Shown piece after piece: positions 28,181 through 60,180 of a stretch of DNA of 64,000 nt. The stretch is from a virus. The stretch spans positions 3,169 to 67,168 of IMG/VR virus record IMGVR_UViG_3300005529_000007; one strand, given 5' to 3'. Positions within the stretch are counted from its first letter, which is position 1. Each line of letters opens with the position of its first letter. Position numbers and translations under genes: made by a program. The notes beneath the pieces are model-generated. The model made no database searches, had not been told where the DNA came from, and saw nothing but the letters and a program-made list of their open reading frames with translations.

Positions 28181-28480
28181 AACCTAAGTTGAACGCCCTA
28201 TGAGTCTATTCGCATGAGATCGCCTGCCGCGAAACACACTGTACTCATTTCGAGAACAATCGTACTCAGAACGAGAACGAAAACTTAGGCACAACTTAGG
28301 CACAAAAAAGGGGGGCTATTCGCCCCCTTTTCGCCTTTCAGGACTCTAAAGGCAACAGATTCAACAGGACTTTTAGAATGGTACTGAGTTAAGCGCCCTG
28401 AAAGTCAAACACATAAGTTATACATTCGGTTGGATTTGGCTGTCAACCTGGGAGCAAGATGGGATCAAAATTGATCCCAA
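28181..28480. other. Candidate attP region with arm-type repeats
   Basis: Mostly non-coding, at the integrase 3' end; tandem AACTTAGGCAC x2 (28282-28303), inverted CCTAAGTT (28183-28190), GTACTCA-n4-GAGAAC x2, TGGGA(G/T)CAA repeats at 28449-28479. Confidence 0.55.
28304..28332. terminator. Bidirectional intrinsic terminator
   Basis: AAAAAAGGGGGG-CTATTCG-CCCCCTTTT between convergent gene blocks. Confidence 0.7.
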
Positions 28481-29614
28481 TTTGTTTGCCATCTTCCTGC
28501 TGTGCTCTCGGCTGGCATGGGCATAGACCTTCAGCGTAATGCTGGGATCAGAATGCCCCAGGCGTGCGGCGACCGTGCGGATGTCCTCCCCTTCAGAGAT
28601 GAGGGCCGTAGCATTCCCATGGCGAAAAGCATGGAGCCCCGCCTTGGGGATACCTAATGTGGCAAGGAGTTTTTGAAGTTTGTCTCGCACCACATATCGG
28701 CTATCCCACGGTCTTCCATTGGCGGTTGCAAACAGAAACGGCACCGAAGCGTCATGGGATCTGACGGCCAGGAAACGAAGAATATGTTCTGCAAGGGTGT
28801 CGGATATTTCAACAGAACGGATTCCACTTGCGCTTTTAGGAGTTTGAAGTCTTCCTCTCCATACTCCCTGCCGCACACGCAGACAACGGTTCGCATAGTC
28901 GAAGTCCTCCACACGAAGACCACACAGCTCACCTGCACGTAGGCCCGTCTCCGCCGCGATCAGGAAGAACGTCTTGAACGGTTCCTGGGCTGCGGATATG
29001 ATCTGTTGCATCTGCTCAGTTGTAAAGGAAGGACGTTCAACAGGCGTTAGCCTGGGGAGCACAATGCCCTCTTTGACATTGTGGGAGACATATCCCCAGG
29101 CTTTCGCTGTCTTCCACGCGGTCCTGAAGGTGGCGTAGATATTTCTAACCGTCTTCGGGCGACACACGAGCGTGGAAATAAATTGTTGCACGAGGGCTGT
29201 GGAGATGTCCCCCATGTTCATCTTCCCGAAGAAGGGCATGATGTACTTGGTCATGTGCACCTTCTCCGAGTTCTGACTAGATGGCTTGTGCTGTGGGAGC
29301 ACAGTCTTCATCCAGCGTTGTGCGAAATCGTTGTAAGACACGACCGCCTTGGGGCGGTAGCTAGTAGAGTTGATCTCCGCCAGCTTCGCTTCCAAGGCGC
29401 GTTGTGCTAGTCGTTTAGTAGGGAGTTCCTGTAGAGTCCCCAAGACCACGGACTTTTGCAAGCGGTGGGTGTTTGTAGATGCAGGGGGTGCACCACAACT
29501 CGCTCGATGTTCTGTGACAGGAGCAAGGACATCCTCCCGCCATCTCCCTACCCACACTTTGTTTCGCTTGCCCCTCAAGAACAGTTGCCCCTTCTGATAC
29601 CTTCTCCGGGCCAT
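28418..29614 (-). CDS. int: Phage integrase (tyrosine recombinase with arm-binding N-terminus)
   Basis: ATG 29614 with SD AGGAG; MARRRYQKG...WVGRWRE; TGLRAGEL, TPKS, HAFRH and RLGHSDPSITLKVY motifs. Confidence 0.93.
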   Translation of the reverse strand: MARRRYQKGQLFLRGKRNKVWVGRWREDVLAPVTEHRASCGAPPASTNTHRLQKSVVLGTLQELPTKRLAQRALEAKLAEINSTSYRPKAVVSYNDFAQRWMKTVLPQHKPSSQNSEKVHMTKYIMPFFGKMNMGDISTALVQQFISTLVCRPKTVRNIYATFRTAWKTAKAWGYVSHNVKEGIVLPRLTPVERPSFTTEQMQQIISAAQEPFKTFFLIAAETGLRAGELCGLRVEDFDYANRCLRVRQGVWRGRLQTPKSASGIRSVEISDTLAEHILRFLAVRSHDASVPFLFATANGRPWDSRYVVRDKLQKLLATLGIPKAGLHAFRHGNATALISEGEDIRTVAARLGHSDPSITLKVYAHASREHSRKMANKLGSILIPSCSQVDSQIQPNV

Positions 29615-29936
29615 GTTTATCTCCTGGCCCGTTGAAACTATTGCCAGGGGTATTGTACTCTCTTGGGTAGGCTGCATACAAGACTGCGTAGTTGATGATG
29701 TCGGCAATGGTGTCCTGGAGTCCTTCATCTTCAACCGCGAAGTGTCCCTTCTCCTCGTAAGATACTAGCCGTGCGATCTTGTCCGACATGCGGACAAGTA
29801 TTCCGTAGGTGCCAAAGGCTCGGAAGTTGGCGAAGATGTCGCTGCTCCGTCCGTAGTCTTGGTTCTTCTTCTCCATGACGGCTCGCGCCTTCCTGGAAAG
29901 ATCGGCGTGAAACGCCAGTAGCTCTTGTCTATTCAT
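29415..29936 (-). CDS. DUF1599-like (all-alpha NTP pyrophosphatase-related) protein
   Basis: KKNQDYG, RMSDKIARL and DTIADIINYAVL motifs; C-terminal tail overlaps the integrase. Confidence 0.75.
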   Translation of the reverse strand: MNRQELLAFHADLSRKARAVMEKKNQDYGRSSDIFANFRAFGTYGILVRMSDKIARLVSYEEKGHFAVEDEGLQDTIADIINYAVLYAAYPREYNTPGNSFNGPGDKHGPEKVSEGATVLEGQAKQSVGREMAGGCPCSCHRTSSELWCTPCIYKHPPLAKVRGLGDSTGTPY

Positions 29937-46529: not shown

Positions 46530-46724
46530 CTAATCTACCAGTCCCTTGGTGAGTTCATACCGCAACTGCTCGGCCCTTCTCATGGCTTCTTCCCGAGGGT
46601 TGTACCAATCCCAATAGAGATTCCCAACCCTCACCCAGCCACCGCGCCCATCTTCGGGCACTTCTACTTCAACCATTGCTCGGATGCGTCTCCGCAGCAC
46701 CCTTGCGTCTACGGTATCCGCCAT
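46530..46724 (-). CDS. Hypothetical protein
   Basis: SD GAGGTG; 64 aa. Confidence 0.5.
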   Translation of the reverse strand: MADTVDARVLRRRIRAMVEVEVPEDGRGGWVRVGNLYWDWYNPREEAMRRAEQLRYELTKGLVD

Positions 46725-47460
46725 TGACCCACCTCACAATGTGCTCCGCAAGAGACGTGATGCCCTGCCGCCGATCTTGCACACCTGGGGCGGTGTTGAC
46801 CTCCAGGACAAACATCCTATCGTCCATGCTGTGGATGATGTCCACGGCCCCGAAGTCCAGGTCCATCGCCTCGACCGCCGCTGACCCGAGGTCCTTCAGC
46901 GCTTGCGGTGCATTATCGTAAAATCTAAACGCAAAACCGTGTCCCCAGTTCCACCCGATGCCCGCCGTTCGTCCAACACCGTATCTTTCAGGGTACTGCA
47001 TAACTTTCTCATACACTGCGATAGGTCTCCGGCGATACGCCCAGACTCGATACTCTCGTTGCCTCGGGATATACTGTACGAAATAATCACAAGCACCTCC
47101 TTGTGTGCGCCATGTGAACTCCACATCATTCTGGAGTATTGGCACGATGTCCTTCGCCTTCGAGTGCTTGAACTTGCGCCCTAAGATGGGGAAGGAAAGT
47201 GGCTGGCCATTCGTCCACCCGCCATTCGTGCTCCAGGTATTATGTGGAGGCACAAGAACTCCTCTGCTGTGCAGGCGCTGGAGTTCCTGGAATTTGTTTA
47301 GCCTGCCTGCATTGCCATTGAGCACGGGCACCGAAGCAGCCACGGGGACGCCATAAGAAACTATGGCTTCCCCCGGTGTGCCGATCTGTATCCCTTGCTC
47401 TTGTAGGAGCTGCCCCAACAGTCTCCCGGTGTCCCCTTTTACTGCGCGAAGTTCGATCAC
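46669..47460 (-). CDS. ATP-grasp ligase (RimK/YheCD-like)
   Basis: QYIP..REYRV, LDFGAVD and VLEVNTAPG motifs. Confidence 0.87.
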   Translation of the reverse strand: MIELRAVKGDTGRLLGQLLQEQGIQIGTPGEAIVSYGVPVAASVPVLNGNAGRLNKFQELQRLHSRGVLVPPHNTWSTNGGWTNGQPLSFPILGRKFKHSKAKDIVPILQNDVEFTWRTQGGACDYFVQYIPRQREYRVWAYRRRPIAVYEKVMQYPERYGVGRTAGIGWNWGHGFAFRFYDNAPQALKDLGSAAVEAMDLDFGAVDIIHSMDDRMFVLEVNTAPGVQDRRQGITSLAEHIVRWVNGGYRRRKGAAETHPSNG

Positions 47461-47469
47461 AAAGACTCC

Positions 47470-47931
47470 TTAAAGTTGTTTCGACCAGAACTCAACCACG
47501 TGTTTCTCCATGTAGTTTGAAGCAAAGCTCCCGGTCGTCTTCCATCCTTGTTTCAGTAGCAAGGTGCGCTCGACGATGTTGTCCTCACGTACTGTGGCAA
47601 CGAGCACTTCTGCCCCTGCCTTTCGTGCGATCTCTTCTCGGTAGCTCGCCATGAGCGTGCCGATCCCACGCCCTCGTTGAAAGCGGCTGACACTCACCTC
47701 GTGCGACACCAGAATCAAGTCGTTCCCTGGCATTGGAGCCAGGGCAAAGTTGCACAGACAGAAGCCATTACTTTCCCCTTCACGAACCATGATGCTGGCG
47801 TGAAAGTTGTCTCCTGCCGAGTTGGTGGTCAGCCTGAGATTCTCTGGCCTGATGTAAGTAAGCCTTGCGATGGTCCGCAAGGCTTCCTCGTTGAGTACCT
47901 CTTTCGTCTTTTCGTCGAGTGTGTAGATCAC
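47470..47931 (-). CDS. GNAT acetyltransferase
   Basis: V...QRGRGIGT acetyl-CoA motif; ATVREDN...KQGW. Confidence 0.85.
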   Translation of the reverse strand: MIYTLDEKTKEVLNEEALRTIARLTYIRPENLRLTTNSAGDNFHASIMVREGESNGFCLCNFALAPMPGNDLILVSHEVSVSRFQRGRGIGTLMASYREEIARKAGAEVLVATVREDNIVERTLLLKQGWKTTGSFASNYMEKHVVEFWSKQL

Positions 47932-48887
47932 GCCTTCAACTCCTTGACTGCGAGGAATGTATTACAACCAGTGCAAACCAGTTCCCAGAGGGGCTGGTTC
48001 TTCTGGCTGTGCGTAAGACTCACGTACTTTTTGCACCCCGGACACTCCACTACATCCAAGGTCTTCTCGTCGTAGTACCGTGTGCGATGACTACGATAGT
48101 TGTCGTGCAGCTTCCCATAGTCCGGGGCAGTGTAGAACTTCGCCACCCGGAACTCGTCATGCCACTCCAGCCCACGTTCCCCGAACATGTAGATCGAGTC
48201 GTTGTTCATGGTGATAAAGGCCAGGTCCGCCCGATTGGGCTGCATGAGCAACCCATGCCGCTCTACGAACGGCCTCATGGCATTATGTATCGCCTGCTTT
48301 TCACTACTCCACACCAGCAAGTTCGGCGTGCTCGCCAGCACGAGCGGGCTCCCGCTGCGTGCCAGGACCAGCTTGCCTGGATACGCATTGGCAATGGCTG
48401 CGATGGCCACGGAACCTGAGATCTTCCTCAAGGCCCGCAGACCCTTCATCGTAAAGCCCCCCTCATCGAGGATCGCCCGCAGGATGTCGCTGTCCACGTC
48501 TGCCTTCCGGTCCAGCGAAAGCTCCCGGAACAACGTGTCATCGTTGTGAATCATGCCGTTGTGCACCACTGCCACGTTCCCGGCAAACACAGGATGATTA
48601 TTGGCGTTGTCCTTCGGGTTGCCTTGCGTCGCTGCTCTTGTGTGCCCCAGGAAGATCTCGGTCTCTTCCCTCAGGTGAGCTGTAAGAAACTCCTTATACG
48701 CCCGGCTCCTCACGAAGTGATTCGCAGGCTCGTCCTGCTTGAGCACCTGGACTTCTTCGCCAGGATTTTGCAAGGCCATCCCCGTGGCGTCCAGCCCACG
48801 TCTCTCATTCGCGCAGAGAAGCGTGGTGATCTTCTCCTCGGTTATAGGTTCGTCGCCAAAGCGGCGGATGCCGCAGATTCCACACAT
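47928..48887 (-). CDS. Class II glutamine amidotransferase
   Basis: N-terminal MCGICG, GHTRAATQG, NNHP, HNGMI and VDSD motifs. Confidence 0.9.
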   Translation of the reverse strand: MCGICGIRRFGDEPITEEKITTLLCANERRGLDATGMALQNPGEEVQVLKQDEPANHFVRSRAYKEFLTAHLREETEIFLGHTRAATQGNPKDNANNHPVFAGNVAVVHNGMIHNDDTLFRELSLDRKADVDSDILRAILDEGGFTMKGLRALRKISGSVAIAAIANAYPGKLVLARSGSPLVLASTPNLLVWSSEKQAIHNAMRPFVERHGLLMQPNRADLAFITMNNDSIYMFGERGLEWHDEFRVAKFYTAPDYGKLHDNYRSHRTRYYDEKTLDVVECPGCKKYVSLTHSQKNQPLWELVCTGCNTFLAVKELKA

Positions 48888-49213
48888 GACTGTTCTCCTC
48901 GTCCGCTCCAGGCATATCCCTGGATTTCGGCTTTCTCTCGCTCGGATAGCTCTCCGAAAAACTTCCATTTGTACTGCTGCATCCAGGAAAGGTGCTTTGC
49001 CTTATTCTGGTGTTTGATAACCCACTTGCGAAATCCGGTTACGTACATACTGCTTTTCCTTGTGTTGCAGAGAGCACAAGCCGGGACCAGGTTCTGTTGG
49101 TACTGATGTCTCGTCCAACCCCTGGGTAAGTACACCCTCGGTACTTGGTGATCTCTGGTTGTGGCAGGTTGCCCACAATACCAGCAGGGTTTCCCCCTTA
49201 CATAAGACTTCAT
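48842..49213 (-). CDS. HNH endonuclease
   Basis: CWYCG...DHQVP...NLVPACALCN. Confidence 0.85.
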   Translation of the reverse strand: MKSYVRGKPCWYCGQPATTRDHQVPRVYLPRGWTRHQYQQNLVPACALCNTRKSSMYVTGFRKWVIKHQNKAKHLSWMQQYKWKFFGELSEREKAEIQGYAWSGRGEQSCVESAASAALATNL

Positions 49214-49277
49214 GGCGCGGTCCCCAAAGAAAAGGGGCAAGATGTACTATCCTCGCCCCCCAGAGTCGAAGCAGCTA

Positions 49278-50786
49278 CTACTCCAAGTCTTTGCTTGGGT
49301 ATTCGTACAACACTTTGCCCTTGAATCTGACAGGAGCGGGAACATATTGGGATTTCCACTCCTTCAGACTGTCGCGGTGAACTTTTTTTATGTCCCAGAT
49401 AGGCAACACTCCGTTGAGTAATGCCTTCTTCATCTTGTGGAACCGCTCGCCTTCGCGCCAGTCGGCACCAATGGAGATGTGCTTTCCTCCATCTGCCTCG
49501 AAGGTCTTGACCGAAAACGGGAACCTGGTCTGCCAGCCAGAGGGCAGGTACTTCACCAGGCTCCTGGACAACATCAACGGATGCACGCCTCTTGTATGCC
49601 CTTGTATGGACATCTTCAATTCCTTGTGGTAGCAGATGTCCCAGATCATCTCGCCCAGGCCCTTGGCTTGGTGAGTATTGGCCGTAGCCAGCGCCAGGGC
49701 ATAGCCATCCGGCAACACAGTCGGGTGCCAGGTAGCTGTCGGCGTCCTCGCAGGAATGGGCACGCCCGAAAAGAGATGGTCAAACATGTCCCGGACATCC
49801 TGCTCACTGGGAGCGATGCTCAAAGGCACAACCTTCACGGGCGTCTTCTCTGTCGGGGTCGTGATCCCCCAGCGTCCCTTGAAGTCCCAGCCCACATGCC
49901 TCGGGAACCCGCCGCGCTTAATTAGGTACAGCGCCAGCAGAGCGTCATCGTCCGTGTCCTTGAAGTACGCCAGGAGGTTCCGCAACTTGGCCGCAAGTAC
50001 CGTAGGATTAGTTCCGTTCCCCGATCTCGTCACCAGCCCTGGGCAATGCACACACAGCTTCGCCAGGGTGATGCTGATAAAGGCCAGCGCTGGGCTGTCT
50101 AGCCAGCTCGGAAACGTGCGGTACTCATAGCCGTGGGTCTGTAGCCTAAAGTCCCCCGGCATCCCGTAATGCTGGCCCAGTCGATCCCCGCCTCGCCTCT
50201 CGGCCATCTCTCGCGTGGGATAGACGCCCATGCCAAGCAGATCCTCGGTGAGATTGTCCAGGGCACGGACCTCATCGGCTCTCGTGGGCCGCTTGCGTCC
50301 CATGTGCACATGCCCGCCAATCCCGTCACCAAAGACAAATGCCCCACAGCGCCATTGGTACGTCGTAATACCTTCCACTAAGGTGGACATCCACCTCAGG
50401 GTGCTCAGAATGCTCGCGCACACACGCAGCGCACACCGGCTCGGGTGAGGCCGAATCTCTGCCAGTCGCCCGTTGTTGTCTGCGCCAAACGCTGGCCCTT
50501 GTTGCAAGCCCAGGTGATGTGCATCCACCCGAGAATCCTCATCTCTCGTCAGCCCACTGCTCACGAACACGAACTCCGGGTCAGCTCCCAGCTTGAAGCG
50601 ATTCACATACCGCCTCTGCGGGCCGAACTCGGGCAACTTCTGGAGCCGTTTCAACCAGCTCTCTAGCTTCTGGTCGGAGACCGTGTAGCCCAACGGGAAC
50701 GCACGGTGGATTCCCTCCGGCGCAGAGATCCCGTGGCTGATGGCCACCCGATAAAAGGCATCCTTGAGTTTCACAAGTTCGCTCAT
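49278..50786 (-). CDS. phiEco32-like COOH-NH2 ligase (paralog 2) with C-terminal extension
   Basis: GADPEF, AEIRP, GGHVH, YGMPGDFR and EYRTFPSW motifs. Confidence 0.83.
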   Translation of the reverse strand: MSELVKLKDAFYRVAISHGISAPEGIHRAFPLGYTVSDQKLESWLKRLQKLPEFGPQRRYVNRFKLGADPEFVFVSSGLTRDEDSRVDAHHLGLQQGPAFGADNNGRLAEIRPHPSRCALRVCASILSTLRWMSTLVEGITTYQWRCGAFVFGDGIGGHVHMGRKRPTRADEVRALDNLTEDLLGMGVYPTREMAERRGGDRLGQHYGMPGDFRLQTHGYEYRTFPSWLDSPALAFISITLAKLCVHCPGLVTRSGNGTNPTVLAAKLRNLLAYFKDTDDDALLALYLIKRGGFPRHVGWDFKGRWGITTPTEKTPVKVVPLSIAPSEQDVRDMFDHLFSGVPIPARTPTATWHPTVLPDGYALALATANTHQAKGLGEMIWDICYHKELKMSIQGHTRGVHPLMLSRSLVKYLPSGWQTRFPFSVKTFEADGGKHISIGADWREGERFHKMKKALLNGVLPIWDIKKVHRDSLKEWKSQYVPAPVRFKGKVLYEYPSKDLE

Positions 50787-50980
50787 AGTTCGGTCCTCGG
50801 CTCCAAGTGCACCAGCCCTCCACAAGAAGAACAAATCACGTAGGGAAATGGCATCGAATTCACGGATGTTTCATGCACGCTGCCACACACGCTACAAGCT
50901 CCCCACATCCCTCCTACTTCTTCTGCGGCAGTAACCCCGTCCAGCTCGTAGATCTCCCCGTCTACATGTTGCTCAGCCAT
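50783..50980 (-). CDS. Zinc-ribbon protein
   Basis: CSVC...CSSC; ATG 50980. Confidence 0.55.
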   Translation of the reverse strand: MAEQHVDGEIYELDGVTAAEEVGGMWGACSVCGSVHETSVNSMPFPYVICSSCGGLVHLEPRTEL

Positions 50981-51577: not shown

Positions 51578-52264
51578 TCAATCCGTGCATTGGCCCTGGC
51601 TCGACGTAGATTCCGTGTCGTTCAAGCCAGAACTGTTGAATAATGTTGAGTGACGAACCTGATGAAGTGTCATCTCCAGTGGCAGCCATCTGTCCATGTC
51701 GAACTTCCATCGCTCCTGACATGATCCTCCGCACAGGGGAACTCCCCATTTCTGTTTCTTCGTATAGTCCTTGCAAACAACGCACTTGCCCTTTTCAAGG
51801 AGCTCCTTGTACGTATTGACGAGCAGCACGTTGCAGTTCCACCAGGATTTCTTGCTGTCGTGCTTGTGCAGGAATCTCTCTGCTCCGCCGTGGCATACCG
51901 TTCTACATGCCCGGCAGACGGAGAACGTCCCGTACTCTTGAGCCACCCCAATCCAGAACCGATATTCCCAGTTCTTCAGGTTCCCAGGCTTCGGGTTAAA
52001 GGCCGTCGTGACCTTCACGAAGCCCATCGGGGTGAACTTTTGCGGCGTACTCCTATTGCACCAGGTACAGATCCAGATCCCATTTCGCAAGATCTTGGCC
52101 GAGGAACCATACGGCAACTTGCACAACGGACATCTATCGTCCGTGTCATATCGCCCTCGGGTCTTCTCCCAATGCGTGGCCTCCCTGGCCCTGACGGGCA
52201 TCTGGGGCTGGCGTGCCCCGTAGGGATACACGATGTTTCTGATTACCCAGAAGGGGACTTTCAT
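51578..52264 (-). CDS. Multi-Zn-finger hypothetical protein
   Basis: Several CxxC pairs; SD AGGAG. Confidence 0.65.
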   Translation of the reverse strand: MKVPFWVIRNIVYPYGARQPQMPVRAREATHWEKTRGRYDTDDRCPLCKLPYGSSAKILRNGIWICTWCNRSTPQKFTPMGFVKVTTAFNPKPGNLKNWEYRFWIGVAQEYGTFSVCRACRTVCHGGAERFLHKHDSKKSWWNCNVLLVNTYKELLEKGKCVVCKDYTKKQKWGVPLCGGSCQERWKFDMDRWLPLEMTLHQVRHSTLFNSSGLNDTESTSSQGQCTD

Positions 52265-52271
52265 GTCTCTC

Positions 52272-52613
52272 CTAGTTCACGAACGAAACTTCGATTCCGT
52301 TTTCAGCAAAAAGTCGAGTAATGTTTTTTTCCCGGTCAGCGTCATGCAGCGACGGGTCGTCATTCGTTGCCATTAGGTGGTCACCGACAAAAGAGCTGGA
52401 GAGCCCCTCGTCGTCGAAGAGAAAAGACATTTGTGTGGGACTATCCAACAAGTCCCGAGGCGAAACCACGCCTAGAATCTGATCCTCCCTCAACCCACAC
52501 GCCAACGAGAAGAAGCCCAAGCAGCACATCTTCCTGTCAGATTTGCGCAAGAGATAGGACCTATGTCCTCCTTCTCCCCTCAACCACTGCTTGCGATCAA
52601 TGACGAGTTTCAT
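52272..52613 (-). CDS. Hypothetical protein
   Basis: WLRG...MCCLG...ND motif pattern common in phage early genes. Confidence 0.7.
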   Translation of the reverse strand: MKLVIDRKQWLRGEGGHRSYLLRKSDRKMCCLGFFSLACGLREDQILGVVSPRDLLDSPTQMSFLFDDEGLSSSFVGDHLMATNDDPSLHDADREKNITRLFAENGIEVSFVN

Positions 52614-52630
52614 AATGCTTTAGTTCCTTC

Positions 52631-52819
52631 CTACGGACACATGTACTCGTATGCTTTGGTTTCCCGTTCTTCCCCACATTGAGCGCACACATCCATTTCG
52701 TATTGCCGAGTTCGTTGCTCGTCGGTACGCGGGTCATACGGGCCTAGCTTGGGGTGCGTTATGGTGCGATTCAAGCAGCACATCACCCATCTATGTAGAC
52801 CGAACCTGCACCAGTTCAC
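52631..52819 (-). CDS. Small Zn-binding protein
   Basis: CRFGLHRW...CAQCG. Confidence 0.6.
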   Translation of the reverse strand: MNWCRFGLHRWVMCCLNRTITHPKLGPYDPRTDEQRTRQYEMDVCAQCGEERETKAYEYMCP

Positions 52820-53097
52820 TGTTCCCTCAATTCCTCCACCGCCACAACCTGGCTGGTGTAAACCAATCTCCCTGCGGTCGCACCCAGCATCTTCCCCAAC
52901 TCCCTGAGGCTCTCATCTCTCGCCTCCATCACCATGCCGACGCGCTTGCCCACAACGGGCTCATCGCAAAGAATGAACGTCCCACTCTCGTCTCTCAACT
53001 CCCCGCTTTCAGTCGTCTTCTGGAGTCTCACCCACGTCTTAGCTGCGTGGTCAATTAGGTACTGGCTCCCTGTCTCAGTCGTTACGAGCTGTTTCAT
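52816..53097 (-). CDS. Hypothetical protein
   Basis: TETGSQY...TSQVV; SD GGAGG. Confidence 0.65.
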   Translation of the reverse strand: MKQLVTTETGSQYLIDHAAKTWVRLQKTTESGELRDESGTFILCDEPVVGKRVGMVMEARDESLRELGKMLGATAGRLVYTSQVVAVEELREQ

Positions 53098-53120
53098 GTG
53101 CCTCCCCCTAAAAAATTTAA

Positions 53121-53290
53121 GACCTGGGGAGAGGAGGCCTAAACACGCCCCTTCACCCAGGTCGTTTCACAGGGAGTTGAGCTTATCGTGCGCCAAGTGG
53201 CGAGCGGCAAGAAGGCCCCTCCTTGTCAAACTCCACCTGTCTCCCTGTATTGGCATAGGCCCACTTAGTGGACGCTGTCCAGGTCGCACT
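53121..53290 (-). ncRNA. Candidate structured RNA or regulatory leader
   Basis: Branched stems plus a terminal GACCTGGG/CCCAGGTC hairpin and U-tract. Confidence 0.4.
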
Positions 53291-53301
53291 AGAACGCAGT
53301 G

Positions 53302-53727
53302 TTACCGCGAGGTCTTTTTTCTCCTCGCCTTGCGTCCGCTGCGATTGCTCGCAGATACTTTGCGTGCTGCCAACAGGGGCATGGTCTTCATGCCCTTGGC
53401 GAACATGGTAATGACGTTCCCGCTCCGCCCCTTGAAGGTGCCGAGTGCTACATAACCCGCCTTGACGGCGGCCTTCTGGGCAGCGAGCTGGTTGTCGTTC
53501 AACGTAATGAGCTTGCAAGGGGCGCTGTCTTCGGAATCCTCAATGGATGCAACGATGACCTTGATGGCCTCTTCTTCATTCGTGACCAGGTTGTCATCTT
53601 TCAGGCTCTCGATCTCGTCTTTGTCTTCAGAGATCTGTTGTTTCAAATCCGCGTCGCTCGGGAAGGTGTAGATCACCTCCACCCCGCAACATCCTGGAAA
53701 ATCGTCTCGATTGATTTCCGTCTCCAT
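53302..53727 (-). CDS. Divergent GNAT-like protein
   Basis: FPGCCG...LITLNDNQ...GY..LGTF pattern; SD GAGGAG. Confidence 0.5.
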   Translation of the reverse strand: METEINRDDFPGCCGVEVIYTFPSDADLKQQISEDKDEIESLKDDNLVTNEEEAIKVIVASIEDSEDSAPCKLITLNDNQLAAQKAAVKAGYVALGTFKGRSGNVITMFAKGMKTMPLLAARKVSASNRSGRKARRKKTSR

Positions 53728-53830
53728 ATTTCTCCTCTTCTTTGTGAATGTCTCCTCCCGGCAGAACCGTGAGGCCTACAAAACCGTGCTCTACATCCGC
53801 AGAAAGCATGTTCCCACTCCTGTGCATAAA

Positions 53831-53856
53831 AAAGGCCACTATTTCAAGTGGCCTTT
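53831..53856 (-). terminator. Intrinsic terminator
   Basis: AAAGGCCACT/AGTGGCCTTT followed by a U-tract on the - strand. Confidence 0.75.
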
Positions 53857-53875
53857 ATTCTGCGTAGGCGCTGGG

Positions 53876-54229
53876 CTACTTCGGCGCAGCCTGCAAGTTG
53901 GATGGAGGCGACGGGAGCACAGGTATCAGTACCTGGACTTCTCCGTCACAGGCACTTTCCGCACCTCCTGTTCCGACATCCGAGACGTTGTAGAAGATCG
54001 TCTGGCCGTCAGTGAGGCCCACTGTGTCCACATACTGAAGGGCGTTGATTCCCGTGGCGTAGGGCGTCGGGGAGCCATTGCAAACTCCCTTGGCCGTGCC
54101 CTTATAGATGTTGTACGTCACACCTGGTGTCGTGGAAGCGTTCCACGAGAGTGTGACGGAATGTTGTCCAGGGGTATTGGCAAACGCCATCCCTCCCAAA
54201 GCAAGTACAACAAGCAAGCGTTTAATCAT
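53876..54229 (-). CDS. Exported fibronectin type III domain protein
   Basis: Signal peptide; SVTLSWNAS...YNIY...YVD...YNVS...GAES...PSPPSNL. Confidence 0.82.
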   Translation of the reverse strand: MIKRLLVVLALGGMAFANTPGQHSVTLSWNASTTPGVTYNIYKGTAKGVCNGSPTPYATGINALQYVDTVGLTDGQTIFYNVSDVGTGGAESACDGEVQVLIPVLPSPPSNLQAAPK

Positions 54230-54331
54230 TTCTTCCTCTTATTGTGGTCCTTGACATGATCCAACAACTTCTCCCAGCGCTTAAACTTCTTCTCGCAATG
54301 CCCGCAACGATGTAGTCTTTTCTTGGCCACC

Positions 54332-54619
54332 TCATCTCCCCTCGTGCACTGAGTAAGCCACCGCAGCACTCTCAGTGCCGATCAGTGCCCATTTGAAAAT
54401 CTTGGCCGCTCGCTTATGCCCGTGCTTGTTCAGCTCATGCGTAGCGAGGATCTCCAGCCCCAGGTCGGCTGCACATGAGCCGTACCCAATCGCTGGTCCA
54501 TGCGTAACAAATGGACGGGCTATGGGGTTTATCTCCCGATAGCCCCCTCTGTCCAGGCGCTGCATTGTGAGCTGGCAATCTGTGGCCGTCAGGGCCATCA
54601 ACAGGGCGAGTGTCTTCAT
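54332..54619 (-). CDS. Membrane hypothetical protein (E-x-N-P family)
   Basis: D..LT...GGYREINPIARP followed by hydrophobic helices. Confidence 0.6.
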   Translation of the reverse strand: MKTLALLMALTATDCQLTMQRLDRGGYREINPIARPFVTHGPAIGYGSCAADLGLEILATHELNKHGHKRAAKIFKWALIGTESAAVAYSVHEGR

Positions 54620-54828
54620 CGCTTGAATCCAAGAACTGTAAGGGCCTCTTGTATCTGGGCATCTCGCTTCGCCTTCGCTGCCTCAATGCGTTGTATTTCT
54701 TCTTCGCGGCACTTGGGGCAGAGGTAAGATAGAGAAGCGTAATCAGATGCCACATACTGCATCTTCACCCCATGCTTGCAGCAGTAGCCATTCCTAGCGA
54801 GCACATTGAGGGCTTCATCACGATTCAT
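54616..54828 (-). CDS. Small Zn-finger protein
   Basis: CCKHG...CPKC. Confidence 0.6.
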   Translation of the reverse strand: MNRDEALNVLARNGYCCKHGVKMQYVASDYASLSYLCPKCREEEIQRIEAAKAKRDAQIQEALTVLGFKR

Positions 54829-54837
54829 AAGTTCTCC

Positions 54838-54865
54838 CCACTACCCAAAAACGGGTCACACAGAC
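54838..54865 (+). repeat. Dispersed repeat R6
   Basis: CCACTACCCAAAAACGGGTCACACAGAC. Confidence 0.8.
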
Positions 54866-54883
54866 CCAAGTTCCTTTTATCCC

Positions 54884-55259
54884 CGCGAACCCCGGCATCT
54901 CCAGAGCGTATGCAAATCCCCGCCCTATCCGTAAAGAACTTCTCCGACAAACTTTGTTCCTTGTTTAACGGGACGCCCGGAGTAAAGGGGTACTAATCGG
55001 TGATATAAGCTCCCCGATTTCCCCCACCCATACGGTTTTCACCAAGGGCCTACCTACGTCGCCCACAGAGGGAACAAACTGATTGCCGTGCCCATCCAAT
55101 CCAGACAGGAGACAAGATGTCCTGTTCTAGAGAAGCACAAAACGAGAGCGAGCTTATGATCGCCCACTCCCATACTTCCCCCGGCCCGTCCGAGCCGCGA
55201 ACCTGGACTCCTTGCCTCGAAAAGCAAGGCCCGTGTCGCTCGGTTGCCGGGGTTCTGCG
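54884..55259 (-). ncRNA. Candidate large structured ncRNA (~375 nt)
   Basis: 11-bp perfect end-to-end helix, UUCG and GAAA tetraloops, many G-U pairs on the - strand, no credible ORF. Confidence 0.65.
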
Positions 55260-55265
55260 AAGAAC

Positions 55266-55583
55266 TTAATAGAAAATTCCATTCCAATTCTGATTGTCGT
55301 AATACGTTTCATACTGCGGCTTGGGATCTGTCTTGACCTTCACCAGGACATCCTCACAGCTTTTCCTGCCGCAACAGGGCACATGGCCCTTGGCCAAATG
55401 AAACGCAGGTCTGGCACAGCCCCGGCAGATAAACCTTGGCAATTTCCCCCTGCCTTTACAGGTCACACAAATGGGATCTTGCTTCTGGTATCTCGGGTCC
55501 ACTCGTGTCCCAAGCCCTCTACAAATGGGACACACGTCCACTACGATTTCTTTGCCAGTCGCTTGCTCGCTAGAATTCCCCAT
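55266..55583 (-). CDS. DnaJ-type CxxCxGxG zinc-finger protein
   Basis: CPICRGLG and CVTCKGRG. Confidence 0.65.
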   Translation of the reverse strand: MGNSSEQATGKEIVVDVCPICRGLGTRVDPRYQKQDPICVTCKGRGKLPRFICRGCARPAFHLAKGHVPCCGRKSCEDVLVKVKTDPKPQYETYYDNQNWNGIFY

Positions 55584-56971
55584 TGACCCTCGTTCTCCAC
55601 AAGGCGCTGGTCCCAATAAACCCTGCGCCCGTTTTTATCCACCTTCCCAAACATATCCAGCTTCCAATTCCCCTCGATGTCCGTGGGATCAGGAATGACA
55701 TGCTCAACACCCTTGAGAATAGTTTCCATTGCCAACGTGATCGTTGGGGAGGCAACACCCTCCGCGTGCGGGAAATTTGTGTACGTCAACAGCGCCGCGA
55801 GCACCTTGGAATTAGTCGCAATCATCTCGCGGGCCGCAGCCACGTCGCACGTGTTAATCACCTTCCGCACATCCGCCGCATTGGCCTTCCAGAGCAAATC
55901 ACACAGGCCAAGCCGCCCGAAGTTCAGGGCCACACGGAACAGCTCCATTGTCAAGTGACCAATCGCCGGATGGCACAACCAGAAGTTGCTCAACGTGCGG
56001 TATTCAATGCCATACGCAGGCAATCTATACTCGCCCGCGAGACCGTAGAATCTCCGCCGAATTGGATTGTCGATATTGGCAGCCATGCTGACCGCGCATA
56101 CACCCAGGACCGCATCCAACGAACGCACGGTCCGCGACACAATATCGTCATTCGTCGGGATCACACCATAGGTCAAATGTCCACCCGCGAATCTGTACTG
56201 CAACCGCCTGGGCTCCGCGACTTCCTGCCCCTTGTCGCCATAGATATTCCGGCTGGGCGTGCATCCCAGGATCACGTACTTCTCGTCGAGCTCCGCGAGC
56301 GTAGATAGGGGAATCTCAACCACATTCTCCAAGGACAACTTCGCATTTGCGTGCTTCTTCCGCGCCGCACTCAATGTGCGATACAAGCCCTCACGTATGT
56401 TGTACGTGACTGATTCCAGGCAATTTGCGGGATTCACATTGAACTCCGCCTGGAAGCCATCCCAAAATGCACGCGCACCCACGCCCACACCGTCAGGAGC
56501 TCCGCCTTCCTGCATTTTGGCCACACGCTTCTGGAACTCCTGCTGACTCCCCTCATTACTCTCCAGGAAATCAAACGCATTGAGCACCTGGTCGCCCACC
56601 TTCACGAAGATCTCCGGGTCGCTTCCTGTGGTCCAGGCCGTGCCTTTCCGCATGACATACTTCCCATTCAAAAGCGAATCTGCCAGCCTGCTCTGCAATT
56701 CCTTGGTCCGCTCTTCAGGGAGCACCTTCCAGGGCATAGTTGCCGGAATCTTGTTTGGCACAGTCATCGCAGCAATCGTGTTGTTGTGGCCGTGCAACAC
56801 GTGCAATTCCGGCCACACATAGGACGTGTTTATTTTGCCCGTGTGATCGTAGGTGCCCTCTGCACCCATAACCAGGGCCTCACGTCCCCCGAAGTATCCC
56901 GCGCCCCACTCGGGCGGGACCTCCACCGCAGTACCTGGGGGAATATCCTTAAATGGAATCTTGTTGCTCAT
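55541..56971 (-). CDS. phiEco32-like COOH-NH2 ligase (paralog 3)
   Basis: GSDPE, DGFQAEFN, GCTP, RFAGGHL, RRRFYGLAGEYR and EYRTLSNFW motifs. Confidence 0.88.
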   Translation of the reverse strand: MSNKIPFKDIPPGTAVEVPPEWGAGYFGGREALVMGAEGTYDHTGKINTSYVWPELHVLHGHNNTIAAMTVPNKIPATMPWKVLPEERTKELQSRLADSLLNGKYVMRKGTAWTTGSDPEIFVKVGDQVLNAFDFLESNEGSQQEFQKRVAKMQEGGAPDGVGVGARAFWDGFQAEFNVNPANCLESVTYNIREGLYRTLSAARKKHANAKLSLENVVEIPLSTLAELDEKYVILGCTPSRNIYGDKGQEVAEPRRLQYRFAGGHLTYGVIPTNDDIVSRTVRSLDAVLGVCAVSMAANIDNPIRRRFYGLAGEYRLPAYGIEYRTLSNFWLCHPAIGHLTMELFRVALNFGRLGLCDLLWKANAADVRKVINTCDVAAAREMIATNSKVLAALLTYTNFPHAEGVASPTITLAMETILKGVEHVIPDPTDIEGNWKLDMFGKVDKNGRRVYWDQRLVENEGQWGILASKRLAKKS

Positions 56972-56976
56972 GGTAC

Positions 56977-57384
56977 TCAATGTCCTTTCCCAGTGACTTC
57001 AAATCTCTTGTGAAAGCACAGTTGAACCAGATCAGCCGCGAACTCAATGCACGTATGATGTACTTGATACGCGGCCATCACCTGCTCAACCCATTTGCGG
57101 TCTTCAACAAGGCTAAGCACATCTTTCAACGTAGCCTTGTATAGTTTGAGTTGCAGCTTCTCCATGACCATCTTGGCTGCCCCCTTGGCATACTGCTCTC
57201 TTTCATGCTGTCGTCTCACCAAGTTGTGCCAAGCGACTTGTTCAGGAGTACCTTCTTGCAGCAAACGTTCATCGGTTACTGTCCTGAGCCCATGCACGAA
57301 TTTTCCCCTTGAGCGAAGTGCCCTCCCGAGAGCGAGCCCAAAAACCGTCGCACGTTCACGTCTTTTGGGCGTAAAAAAGGCCAT
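56977..57384 (-). CDS. Hypothetical protein (start uncertain)
   Basis: ORF abuts the ligase gene; its 5' end overlaps a terminator. Confidence 0.5.
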   Translation of the reverse strand: MAFFTPKRRERATVFGLALGRALRSRGKFVHGLRTVTDERLLQEGTPEQVAWHNLVRRQHEREQYAKGAAKMVMEKLQLKLYKATLKDVLSLVEDRKWVEQVMAAYQVHHTCIEFAADLVQLCFHKRFEVTGKGH

Positions 57385-57650
57385 AGGCAAACCCCTTCTG
57401 CCTATGGCCTCTTCGCTCTGGGGGAGAGACCTCCAGGTTTCCCTAGAGGCGGGTTCTTATAGAACCCTCACAATGGACCTAATCCACTGTGAGCGTTCCA
57501 CTGGAACGCCCGACGACTAGCACGGATAATTGCACCCGCAATAAGTGCGGGTGAGTCAAAACGAGGAAGGTACGTACCCAAGTTCGGATAGGTGCCCTCT
57601 CCTTCCAGATGGGAGCTTATGCCGCTCCCTGGCGTATTACCTCGTTTTAT
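57373..57650 (-). ncRNA. Candidate structured ncRNA (~280 nt) with abutting hairpins and a terminator
   Basis: At least seven strong helices; GAAA loop and G-U pairs fit the - strand. Confidence 0.6.
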
Positions 57651-57741
57651 GAGGCCGAACAAAACAGCCACTTTTCTTGCAATCATGCTTTGCCAGTGGC
57701 CGCTTCTTCAGGCGTGTAAAAAGCCTCTTGAGCAATTTCAT
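57637..57741 (-). CDS. 34-aa basic peptide (not in ORF track)
   Basis: MKLLKRLFTRLKKRPLAKHDCKKSGCFVRPHKTR after GGGAG. Confidence 0.4.
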   Translation of the reverse strand: MKLLKRLFTRLKKRPLAKHDCKKSGCFVRPHKTR

Positions 57742-57757
57742 GAATAGCTCCCATCAA

Positions 57758-57788
57758 AAAAGGGAACGGAGAATGTCCGTTCCCTTTT
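57758..57788. terminator. Intrinsic terminator (bidirectional)
   Basis: AAAAGGGAACGGA/TCCGTTCCCTTTT. Confidence 0.75.
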
Positions 57789-57951
57789 ATGTCGTTAGCT
57801 ATTGCTACTCTACGGCGTGTGTGACCCCGGCAACATCTGCACCAGCTCATGCTGCACAGAGCGCCTAAGCGCCCTCTGCTTGATGTCATCCAGGGAAACC
57901 ACCACCAGCAGCAACAACAAAACCACCGCAATCCACTTCATCGCTTCCCTC

Positions 57952-58665
57952 CTAATTGCGAGTACAATACGCTTTCGCAGGGGCGCTTGCATAGTGGGTT
58001 AATTCCAGCGCTATACCAATCGGGTGCCAATTCCCTGTCGGGGTGAATCTATACAGGGTTTGGTCATACGACCATCCCCATACTGACGCTTCCCCTGACG
58101 GCGCTTCCACACTGCCCGGATTCCAGTTCGGTGGCGTGTGCGCAGCATCGCACCACGTGGCCACCGGATACCAGCACCCATAGCCATCGCACGTGATTGC
58201 GAGACCTGTTCTTTGCAGCACATCCACCGCACTCTCGATGTACGTGTTCAAATTAAAGTACTGTGTCCCGGACTTGCATATCGCGCCGCCTGTATAGGCA
58301 ATCGCATACGTCACCGAGCCCGCGTAAACAGTCCCTTGAACCATTTTCCCTTGCAAGGCGTTGTTCGTAGCCCGCATGGCCTGCATGTTGCTGTCCCAAT
58401 ATCCGTTCACCGCAACACCGTTGACCGTAAACGTCAGCGCCGTAGGCGTTGCATAGCACGTCCAGGGAATGCAGGTGTTACCGTTGCAGTACTCGGTGTC
58501 CTCGGAGCCGCCGAATACATCAAACTCAAATACATCCGACGGGAAATCACTCCCCGAAGAAACGATCTGCGTACTTGTGGGCGGCGTCACCTCTTGCTGC
58601 CCTTGAGCGGCCATCACGAAGATCCCAAGTATCAACGAAACTAACACTCCACACCATCGCGTCAT
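57952..58665 (-). CDS. Exported Cys-rich protein
   Basis: Signal peptide MTRWCGVLVSLILGIFVMAAQG; beta-rich with paired Cys. Confidence 0.7.
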   Translation of the reverse strand: MTRWCGVLVSLILGIFVMAAQGQQEVTPPTSTQIVSSGSDFPSDVFEFDVFGGSEDTEYCNGNTCIPWTCYATPTALTFTVNGVAVNGYWDSNMQAMRATNNALQGKMVQGTVYAGSVTYAIAYTGGAICKSGTQYFNLNTYIESAVDVLQRTGLAITCDGYGCWYPVATWCDAAHTPPNWNPGSVEAPSGEASVWGWSYDQTLYRFTPTGNWHPIGIALELTHYASAPAKAYCTRN

Positions 58666-59952: not shown

Positions 59953-60180
59953 TTAAGTTCTCTCCACCGCCCCCAAGTGCGAGTCGCTCTGTGCGACCCG
60001 TTTTTCGGGTAGTGCTAGAACAAGCTCTTGCCCATAGGGCACCACAACCCAGTCATCCATATGTGTCTTGGTATGTCCCGCAAGGTTGCGCATCATATCT
60101 CTCGCAACCTCCAAGGACATGTAGGAGGCCGACAATCTCCGCCAGCCCCCTGTTCGCAACTTAAGCGCGAGCTGATACAT
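59953..60180 (-). CDS. Hypothetical protein
   Basis: ATG 60180 after GAGGAG. Confidence 0.55.
   Translation of the reverse strand: MYQLALKLRTGGWRRLSASYMSLEVARDMMRNLAGHTKTHMDDWVVVPYGQELVLALPEKRVAQSDSHLGAVERT
59987..60014 (-). repeat. Dispersed repeat R7 (inside a CDS)
   Basis: Reverse complement CACTACCCGAAAAACGGGTCGCACAGAG. Confidence 0.78.

Follow-up and report, generated by a model that had tools for sequence, protein, structure and literature searches.

A conserved multi-domain structured RNA encoded after a DnaJ-type zinc-finger gene in uncultivated podophage-like viruses

Bacteria and phages have only a few known classes of non-coding RNA that are large and highly structured. Many of these classes are important, among them RNase P, transfer-messenger RNA (tmRNA), the signal recognition particle (SRP) RNA and the group I and II introns. 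Other large classes, such as OLE, GOLLD, ROOL and raiA, remain open problems. A neighbourhood of transfer RNA (tRNA) genes is typical of GOLLD and ROOL. Both are described in the excerpts of PMC12286853 as large, multi-domain, covariation-supported, phage-borne RNAs without known function that form RNA-only assemblies, and OLE appears in the excerpts of PMC12054373 as a large conserved structured RNA of ~600 nucleotides (nt) from Bacillota, with partner-protein genes adjoining and its biochemical role unresolved. Here we describe a structured RNA encoded on the minus strand of a 64,000-nt stretch of viral DNA (the window; bases 3169–67168 of the 67,168-bp IMG/VR record IMGVR_UViG_3300005529_000007, which has direct terminal repeats and is rated 100% complete), where it follows the genes for a COOH-NH2 ligase and a zinc-finger protein. 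As far as the databases and literature searched show, it represents a new RNA family with ~30 members in two subtypes, strong covariation and a fixed protein-gene partner; the members, ~250–470 nt long, come from uncultivated podophage-like viruses. The novel structured phage RNA that a preliminary description had proposed from the window alone thus stands, with homologs, covariation, folding, coding and Rfam checks all favourable.

The present RNA resembles GOLLD and ROOL in being large, phage-borne, built of several domains and backed by covariation, and in one locus (L010) it is directly followed by a tRNA gene. It is smaller than either (250–470 nt), and both are in Rfam, yet neither matches here. 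A tRNA neighbour was found in only 1 of 18 loci, and general adjacency to tRNA genes was rejected. The present RNA also has a dedicated neighbouring protein gene, whereas GOLLD and ROOL are RNA-only according to the excerpts of PMC12286853. Adjoining genes for candidate protein partners and an unresolved role are features it shares with OLE, although it occurs in phages and has no Rfam OLE match. To our knowledge, the OLE partner proteins are not zinc-finger proteins of the DnaJ-like phage type. The RNA appears closest in kind to these orphan large RNAs of bacteria and phages (GOLLD, ROOL and OLE) and, by the lack of any Rfam match, is a member of none.

Rfam 15 returned 0 matches at the gathering score across the whole 64-kb window, in agreement with the preliminary description, which had seen no hallmarks of tmRNA, RNase P, 6S or group I/II introns. 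At E ≤ 10, positions 54700–55400 gave only chance-level matches to mir-787 (17.3 bits versus 57) and snoJ33 (14.8 versus 45). Nothing was matched at the element in 10 homologous loci either, with GOLLD, ROOL, OLE, HEARO, raiA, SRP, riboswitches and ribozymes among the families tested, and the element therefore keeps its claim to novelty. ARAGORN reported 0 tRNA or tmRNA genes in the window and none inside the element in 18 homologous loci. In the literature collection that could be searched, including excerpts of PMC2938197, there was no mention of the present RNA, nor of any RNA associated with the COOH-NH2 ligases of phages or with a zinc-finger gene of this kind.

The minus strand of 54884–55259 has a minimum free energy (MFE) of −170.5 kcal/mol (z = −4.74). 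Its dinucleotide shuffles averaged −138.5 (s.d. 6.8), and none of the 100 folded as well; homologs in loci L003 and L214 fold at z = −6.21 and −6.48, respectively. The perfect 11-bp closing helix of the preliminary description (55255–55245 with 54897–54887) is present as claimed, and the MFE structure extends it past one bulged A by 7 pairs (55263–55257 with 54886–54880), which sets the span of the element at ~55263–54880. The nhmmer profile of the family matches the window at 55270–54866 (E = 1.1e-52), in a single copy. The overall plan is a long terminal stem, P1–P2–P3, with conserved junctions, leading into a three-way junction with two arms. In the consensus, P1 has 17–20 bp and is followed by a small conserved internal loop, by P2 (CC+GAGCG with CGCUC-U-GG) and by a conserved P2–P3 internal loop (A-A/C-A against G/C-A-Y-A, next to GAUUUG). 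Arm 1 consists of P4 around an almost invariant GGCyC-loop-GGGCC hairpin (P5) plus a variable hairpin, and arm 2 is a long stack of Pa, Pb, P6, a 3-bp helix, P7 and P8 with a variable tip. The MFE structure of the window has P1 to P6 as in this consensus and differs only at P7. The parts of the RNA in the window are the following.

54880..55263, minus strand: structured RNA, type 1 member, ~384 nt from P1 outer end to P1 outer end (MFE, nhmmer profile, covariation in 18 members)
55245..55263, minus strand: P1 5' strand, UCUUCGC-A-GAACCCCGGCA; pairs with 54880–54897 in 18 bp with one bulged A; columns covary
54880..54897, minus strand: P1 3' strand, UGCCGGGGUUC-GCGGGGA (MFE and comparative)
55237..55243, minus strand: P2 5' strand, CCGAGCG; pairs with CGCUC-U-GG at 54901–54908; flanked by conserved junctions AA (5') and ACAC (3')
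55222..55233, minus strand: P3 5' strand, CGGG-CCUUGCU (comparative and MFE)
54901..54925, minus strand: 3' core, with P3 3' strand GGCGGGG-A-UUUG, conserved junction GCAUA, P2 3' strand CGCUCUGG, then a conserved AGAU junction
55109..55218, minus strand: arm 1, in which P4 encloses P5 and P5a
55218–55210 with 55117–55109, minus strand: P4, GAGGCAAGG with UCUUGUCUC
55197–55182, minus strand: P5 hairpin, (C)GGCUC-GGAC-GGGCC(G), kept in 18 of 18 rows of alignment A5 with little variation
55181–55129, minus strand: P5a, variable G-U-rich hairpin
54925..55108, minus strand: arm 2, with Pa, Pb, P6, the 3-bp helix, P7–P8 and a distal part
55108–55102 with 54931–54925, minus strand: Pa; 55088–55083 with 54950–54945, minus strand: Pb (main-clade consensus and MFE)
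55078–55071 with 54960–54953, minus strand: P6, UUUGUUCC/GGAACAAA, strong covariation
55067–55065 with 54964–54962, minus strand: 3-bp helix, UGU/ACA
55063–55053 with 54980–54970, minus strand: P7–P8, comparative pairing; the distal part, 55052–54981, is window-specific

The internal pairings first proposed for the window fared unevenly against the family. UUUGUUCC/GGAACAAA is real and covaries, and the G-U-rich hairpin GGGGAAGUAU..GUGCUUCUCU is found in the MFE structure, in a region that varies among homologs. Three others are alternatives that the window sequence allows and the family does not keep. The conserved partner of CCGAGC is CGCUC-U-GG near the 3' end (P2) rather than GCUCGG, and GGCUC makes its own hairpin with GGGCC (P5). 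The CCGAGC/GCUCGG pairing was rejected because it does not hold in L010, L174 and L013; in these loci, P2 shows covariation with the 3' end instead. Compensatory variants of P2 are visible by eye in L010 (GGAACGG/CCGUUCU), L174 (AAAGGCG/CGCCUUU) and L005 (AAGACG/CGUUUU). Instead of forming the CCUUGCUU-UUCG-AGGCAAGG cap, GAGGCAAGG pairs with UCUUGUCUC in P4, and ACAGGA/UCCUGU is replaced by P4 and Pa in the conserved structure.

Covariation was counted on A5, a MAFFT alignment of 18 full-length members. RNAalifold alone recovered the terminal helix and the long arm, with compensatory changes in 27 of 34 pairs. For a 53-pair structure drawn from the window helices, 81.4% of 911 cells were paired, compared to 65.7% with shuffled 3' partners (0 of 500 shuffles as high) and 38–52% when the partners were slid by 1–3 columns. 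Double changes occupied 160 cells versus 60 shuffled and at most 56 slid, both-sided changes were found in 39 of the 53 pairs, and the covariation score was 0.495 versus 0.227. Compensatory changes thus exceed both the shuffled and the slid controls, as is generally expected of a structured RNA family, and the fold first seen in a single sequence is borne out by its homologs. The best helices were P6 (86.6% paired), the 3-bp helix (94.2%), which alternates between UGU/ACA and UAG/CUA among members, and P7–P8 (96.3%), so that 87–96% of cells were paired in this part of arm 2, with many compensatory changes. The outer half of P1 reached 60%, a low score that arises because MAFFT misaligns the P1 3' strand in several rows. 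Kinship alone can make related sequences beat shuffles without any structure, but as a cause of the present signal it is opposed by the slid controls and by how many pair types occur. Over nine main-clade sequences, RNAalifold gave 99 pairs, 65 of them with compensatory changes; this sub-alignment and that of type 2 (below) provide independent support.

Among the 911 helix cells, G-U or U-G pairs numbered 138 versus 32 A-C or C-A, which indicates that the gene strand is the folded strand; the resolution of mismatches as G-U pairs on the minus strand, claimed earlier for the window, therefore holds family-wide. Orientation is constant as well, with the element on the strand of the ligase and flanking genes and downstream of the ligase in all 33 loci with an RNA match. 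These results bear on the idea that the fold serves the DNA itself, for instance as an origin of replication or a packaging site, or arose by chance in a non-coding spacer. The plus strand of 54884–55259 also beats its shuffles (z = −2.61), and the genome, which is terminally redundant, has the element in its early/replication half, as such an idea would have it, but the minus strand folds with the stronger z, G-U cells far outnumber A-C cells, pairs spanning >350 nt covary and the orientation follows the flanking genes throughout, which together make a DNA-level or chance origin extremely improbable.

None of the reading frames stays open across all 18 members, the longest sense stop-free stretch ranging from 26 to 96 codons; in antisense, L197 and L174 come close to an open frame, with 147 and 124 codons, respectively, and most others have 33–86. 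Indels between the window and L003 measure 4, 7, 3, 5, 6 and 1 bases and are not multiples of three. With neither a conserved open frame nor indels in threes, the element lacks the marks of a protein-coding gene, and the conserved protein ORF (open reading frame) that would have overturned the earlier non-coding assignment was not found among these members. The conserved, non-coding, strand-specific, multi-domain structured RNA family is genuine, and of this we are virtually certain.

An architecture of this kind raises the possibility of a ribozyme, self-processing or with other chemistry, whose catalytic centre is the conserved core. Invariant junctions and an invariant hairpin stand among covarying helices in a multi-domain RNA, the size is within the range of large ribozymes and a polycistronic transcript would need cutting to release the RNA. 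Against this, the Rfam 15 ribozyme families gave 0 matches and neither a pseudoknot nor a known catalytic motif was recognised, and we consider a ribozyme decidedly improbable.

The family was assembled through its ligase gene. A ligase search of IMG/VR gave 14 loci, and with the window gap as nhmmer query a collinear match over the whole element was found in one of them, L003 (E = 7.8e-6). The L003 copy, too, is preceded by the ligase and a small ORF, and its terminal helix differs in sequence from that of the window and still pairs. Inspection of the gaps downstream of the ligase in other loci added L005 and L010. A ligase profile (A4) then gave 79 metagenome loci and 3 genome loci. Iterated nhmmer recovered the element in L186, L159, L142, L160, L155, L164 and L144, as well as in L212, L172 (= L173), L197, L013, L174, L163 and L217; copies in L146, L188 and L171 are cut by contig ends. 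Type 1 thereby has 19–20 further members, full or partial, on IMG/VR and metagenome contigs, and was found in 21 of 96 ligase loci searched, a figure that counts duplicate contigs twice. The counts here and below include the duplicates L141 = L003 and L154 = L004 and the near-identical pairs L172/L173, L185/L187 and L189/L193. All homolog searches used nhmmer profiles, which miss divergent members.

Among 50,697 phage records, a distant-mode blastn search with the gap matched nothing, and tblastn with the ligase found only relatives with 26–29% identity, from cultured Pseudomonas, Escherichia, Vibrio and other phages; a cultured carrier of the RNA was not found by either search. A ligase-profile scan of metagenome-assembled genomes yielded 3 loci, of which 0 carried the RNA and which therefore provide no clue to the host. 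Motif scans of IMG/VR produced mostly chance matches. The 5' motif found 5 loci, of which the L003 contig is real and 4 are chance matches in coding DNA; the 14-mer GATTTGCATACGCT found at least 119 loci, all chance except the L003 contig. The arm-2 motif found 11 loci, with the L013 contig real, 9 without a match and L225 showing only a local match (39 profile positions, E = 3.2e-4) that was taken as chance. None of 11 loci from the GGGCNTCCCGNTAAACAAG scan was real, the sole one inspected, L234, being a terminator hairpin with a ribosome-binding site. The GGGCnTCCCGnTAAACAAG word is matched in the same way by nhmmer in seven IMG/VR loci among L234–L244 (E = 7.4e-4, ~35 profile positions); in L234 (1982–2045, minus strand) it belongs to a terminator-like hairpin with AAGGAG and a start codon behind it, and has no relation to the RNA family.

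A second subtype became apparent on reading the DNA of 11 loci that have the zinc-finger gene and no type 1 match, where a shorter element follows that gene. Type 2 elements (250–370 nt) retain the P1–P2–P3 stem, the GAAAC...GGAYAC junction words and the GGCyC/GGGyC hairpin; they have a different second arm and an extra small conserved hairpin of GGAGG-GGAA-CCUUC type directly after P5. A profile from seven of them finds 12 loci, 9 of them distinct (L204, L214, L004 = L154, L185 = L187, L168, L149, L162, L189 = L193 and L206), always downstream of the zinc-finger gene. RNAalifold on the nine gave 41 pairs, which take in P1, P2, P3 and the hairpins; compensatory changes are present in 30 of them. 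Their coordinates are listed here.

L204:4274–4577, type 2 RNA
L214:1426–1728, type 2 RNA
L162:4392–4681, type 2 RNA
L154:4740–5028 (= L004:5740–6028), type 2 RNA
L149:1552–1800, type 2 RNA
L185:4251–4507, type 2 RNA
L168:3370–3628, type 2 RNA
L206:1193–1498, type 2 RNA
L189:2875–3247, type 2 RNA

Two loci with the zinc-finger gene, L153 and L012, gave no clear RNA match with the nhmmer profiles. L153:2151–2569 matches the type 1 profile only at E = 0.061 and contains a GGCCC-TTC-GGGCC hairpin; a third and more diverged version of the RNA may be encoded in this region and, in L012, downstream of 6222.

The most constant companion of the RNA is the zinc-finger gene, in the fixed order COOH-NH2 ligase, DnaJ-type zinc-finger protein (~85–160 aa), RNA. 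Two genes of the window complete this order.

55541..56980, minus strand: COOH-NH2 ligase type 2 (phiEco32-like), 479 aa, first gene in the ligase–zinc-finger–RNA order
55266..55616, minus strand: zinc-finger ORF with DnaJ-type CxxCxGxG repeats, 116 aa from TTG; the recorded form has 105 aa from an internal ATG

The zinc-finger stop codon (55268–55266) ends 2 nt ahead of P1 in the window, and in 10 members read by eye P1 begins 0–14 nt after that stop. Relatives of the protein are encoded at this place in each of the four IMG/VR members compared at the outset, and likewise in 20 of 20 loci of alignment A6. Across the 96 ligase loci, type 1 RNA occurs with the zinc-finger gene in 21 and without it in 0; the zinc-finger gene occurs without type 1 in 11, of which 9 carry type 2 and the remaining two are L153 and L012. 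Neither was found in 33 loci, and in 31 the downstream DNA was too short to judge. The ligase–zinc-finger–RNA order persists at ligase identities of 31–46% and zinc-finger identities of 17–39%, and the zinc-finger-then-RNA order persists through changed downstream genes and through change in all of the RNA but its core. By eye, L185/L187 and L153 have additional coding sequence between the two. In a FastTree phylogeny of the ligases, the loci with RNA and zinc-finger gene group together, and the RNA-less rows among them are mostly truncated contigs. The persistence of the order across such divergence speaks for a functional tie, as far as gene order can indicate one.

The protein itself has a core with 7 cysteines invariant in 20 of 20 sequences, arranged in the motifs CPxCxG, CxxCxGxG, CxxCGRPA and YCGxxxC. 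These four CxxC-type motifs, two of them CxxCxGxG, are reminiscent of the DnaJ cysteine-rich (CR) domain, BSD2 and Anti-TRAP, but the third and fourth (CxxCGRPA, YCGxxxC) differ from the DnaJ repeat, only the first two fit CxxCxG(xG) and there is no J domain. Pfam DnaJ_CXXCXGXG (PF00684) scores the window protein at 20.4 bits (E = 6.1e-4), under its 32.7-bit cutoff, and with that score and fewer than four CxxCxGxG repeats the protein resembles the DnaJ cysteine-rich domain family but does not qualify as an established member. An AlphaFold model (mean predicted local distance difference test score, pLDDT, 75.9; core 82–91) has DnaJA2, the DnaJ CR domain, BSD2 and Anti-TRAP as its best matches by Foldseek in the PDB, with E = 0.013–0.5 for the DnaJ CR domain. 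A profile of the protein run against 5.8 billion proteins found 4 relatives only, none named; a locus search with the single window protein gave no match, and one with a 4-sequence alignment returned only three contigs already known.

On this basis we propose, with moderate confidence, that the element is a new phage RNA made on the ligase–zinc-finger transcript and bound by the zinc-finger protein as a ribonucleoprotein, with the long P1 setting and protecting its ends. The RNA would be transcribed as the tail of the ligase–zinc-finger message; a scan for sigma-70-like promoters, which covered that promoter type only, found none between ligase and RNA. The 17–20-bp P1 would define and protect the RNA ends, possibly as a site of double-strand-specific processing, and the conserved P1–P2–P3 junctions and the invariant P5 hairpin would make a tertiary core that the co-encoded protein binds while being made. 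The product would be a small phage ribonucleoprotein acting in early or middle infection, perhaps together with the neighbouring amidoligase enzymes. With regard to the scaffold, decoy or anti-defence RNA suggested before, the constant zinc-finger neighbour favours, by its context, a protein-bound RNA or scaffold over a decoy. Such a particle would recall the phi29 prohead RNA, a phage-encoded structured RNA that works only within a protein machine. The prohead RNA is ~170 nt long, is expressed from a separate promoter at the genome end and attaches to the portal, whereas the present RNA sits in the early/metabolic block of the minus strand, ~45 kb from the portal gene, and has no Rfam match to prohead RNA.

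Several observations weigh against this proposal. All loci were fetched with the ligase gene as bait, which biases the gene context, and ligase-independent motif scans of IMG/VR recovered only the L003 and L013 contigs, both of which also bear the ligase. The ligase tree contains a 38-row clade with neither RNA nor zinc-finger gene; the pair is a trait of one part of that tree, so its association goes back to few independent events, and the co-occurrence may reflect shared ancestry and conserved synteny, not repeated selection. A search for sequencing runs matching window 52000–58000 turned up no RNA run. Binding of the RNA by the protein is proposed from gene order alone. The Foldseek comparison with the PDB gave no match at E ≤ 0.001, and the modelled fold would liken the protein to the protein-binding zinc fingers of DnaJ, BSD2 and Anti-TRAP, not to a known RNA-binding domain. 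The type 2 element of L204, at z = −1.87, does not fold beyond what chance would give. Only in the window, L003, L005 and L013 is the RNA followed by a terminator-like hairpin with a U run (by eye beyond the window), and in many members the next ORF starts, by eye, within ~25 nt of the P1 3' strand. With such tight packing and so few terminators, an intercistronic messenger RNA (mRNA) element fits as well as a released RNA.

The main alternative is a cis-acting element of the operon mRNA, with or without the zinc-finger protein: an antitermination signal read by RNA polymerase like put or nut–N, a translational operator in which the ribosome-binding site of the next gene is hidden in the P1 3' strand, or a 3' stabiliser of the ligase–zinc-finger message. 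The element does lie in a long run of genes that all point one way, with little room between the preceding stop codon and the gene that follows, and in some members the P1 3' strand is purine-rich and near the next start codon, which in L186 and L159 comes, by eye, ~4–15 nt after GAGGA/GGGGAG of that strand. The terminator-like hairpins directly after the RNA in the four loci just named would suit an antitermination signal, as would the weak resemblance of the zinc-finger protein to Q-like antiterminators (PHROG, E = 8.9e-4; Q-lambda as a weak structural match, E ~2), although these matches are below any significance threshold. HK022 put and the lambda nut/boxB elements, hairpins of 15–70 nt, are likewise structured RNAs in a phage operon before a terminator, and lambda also employs a small phage protein. 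Put, nut/boxB, EAR and translational operators together range from tens to ~120 nt, however, and an RNA of 250–470 nt with ~100 conserved pairs and invariant junctions fits poorly among them in size and complexity. A terminator follows some members only, and neither N nor Q is related to a DnaJ-type zinc finger with four motifs. The distance and identity of the next gene also vary, from 52 nt with a terminator in the window to a tRNA gene in L010 and other ORF families elsewhere. We regard a cis-acting element as a real possibility but an unlikely one.

Downstream of the RNA, the window has the following features.

54846..54868, minus strand: terminator-like hairpin UGGGUC-UGUGU-GACCCG followed by UUUUU; the hairpin proper is at 54868–54852, 12 nt after the RNA
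54616..54828, minus strand: first ORF after the RNA, 70 aa, cysteine-rich, without family match

The same hairpin would be expected of a very large riboswitch-like sensor that binds a small molecule, for example a product of the amidoligase, glutamine amidotransferase or ATP-grasp enzymes encoded nearby, and feeds back on the operon. Highly conserved unpaired junction nucleotides lie beside covarying helices, as in ligand-binding RNAs, and the element is inside a cluster of small-molecule or peptide ligase genes. The terminator-like hairpin at 54868–54852 neither overlaps nor competes with P1, though, and most members have no terminator-like site there by eye; a P1 of 17–20 bp does not suggest a switching helix. 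In some members, on the other hand, the purine-rich P1 3' strand comes close to the next start codon. Riboswitches precede the genes under their control, whereas the enzymes here are upstream or far downstream, and the element exceeds in size every riboswitch class we know of. A sensor of this kind seems improbable.

Further observations concern the surroundings of the RNA. A 26-nt stretch 5 kb away, at 59988–60014 (plus strand), matches the terminator-like hairpin region (54839–54864) at 93% and is possibly a second terminator of the same type. The tRNA gene of L010 (5826–5896), ~30 nt after the RNA, scores 50.7 bits with Rfam tRNA; ARAGORN gives it as 'tRNA-???', with an odd anticodon loop. 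In L013, a tRNA-like piece was seen by eye at ~7060–7125, after the RNA and a U run, with a T-arm-like word (GGTTCAAGTCC) and an acceptor-like end (...GCGTCCACC); no tRNA was called at this place by ARAGORN or in the Rfam scan (E ≤ 10). In L155, the stretch 381–447, upstream of the ligase, weakly matches the Y RNA-like YrlA (31.2 bits, gathering score 69; E = 0.0085). In several members a small, cysteine-rich (zinc-ribbon-like) ORF comes first after the RNA (window 54616–54828, L186:3878–4051, L010:5947–6225 and an L172 ORF from ~2403); these ORFs seem non-homologous among themselves, and the remaining members have unrelated ORFs at that place.

The element occupies the non-coding gap 54829–55265, between the stop of the minus-strand ORF 55266–55616 and the start of the minus-strand ORF 54616–54828. 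By PHROG matches, the plus strand holds the structural block, with portal (8112–10208), major head protein (11814–12824) and internal virion protein genes. Two integrase-like genes, at 26844–27710 (plus strand) and 28418–29734 (minus strand), face each other between the structural and replication blocks of this terminally redundant, podophage-like genome. The long minus-strand block carries genes for DNA polymerase A, primase, exonucleases and a sigma-factor-like protein (PHROG), together with clustered genes for amide-bond enzymes, which encode a glutamine amidotransferase, a RimK-like ATP-grasp enzyme and a pair of COOH-NH2 ligases of phiEco32 type; the ligase not listed so far is given here.

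49278–50834, minus-strand block: COOH-NH2 ligase paralog (phiEco32-type)

The amide-bond set occupies 46669–50834 and 55541–56980, and its glutamine amidotransferase-like gene is of class II. The two ligase paralogs are divergent, the second lying on a very long branch of the ligase tree with at most 24% identity to any other row. A more active part for the RNA is conceivable, as substrate, template or cofactor of a COOH-NH2 ligase or as a ribozyme held by the zinc-finger protein; the RNA might, for instance, be amidated or aminoacylated, or position substrates for peptide-bond-like ligation. We think such a partnership improbable.

The new class adds ~100 conserved pairs, two structural subtypes and ~30 members, all from uncultivated phages, to the small set of large structured RNAs. 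It also provides a handle that is rare among orphan RNAs, as a dedicated co-encoded zinc-finger protein and a defined operon are both at hand and can be directly synthesised. If the RNA is an active partner of the ligase, or a ribozyme held by the zinc-finger protein, it would constitute a phage RNA–protein enzyme system of an undescribed kind. If, as we propose, the RNA and the zinc-finger protein form a particle that acts in host takeover or with the amidoligases, it would represent a new type of phage RNA–protein machinery.

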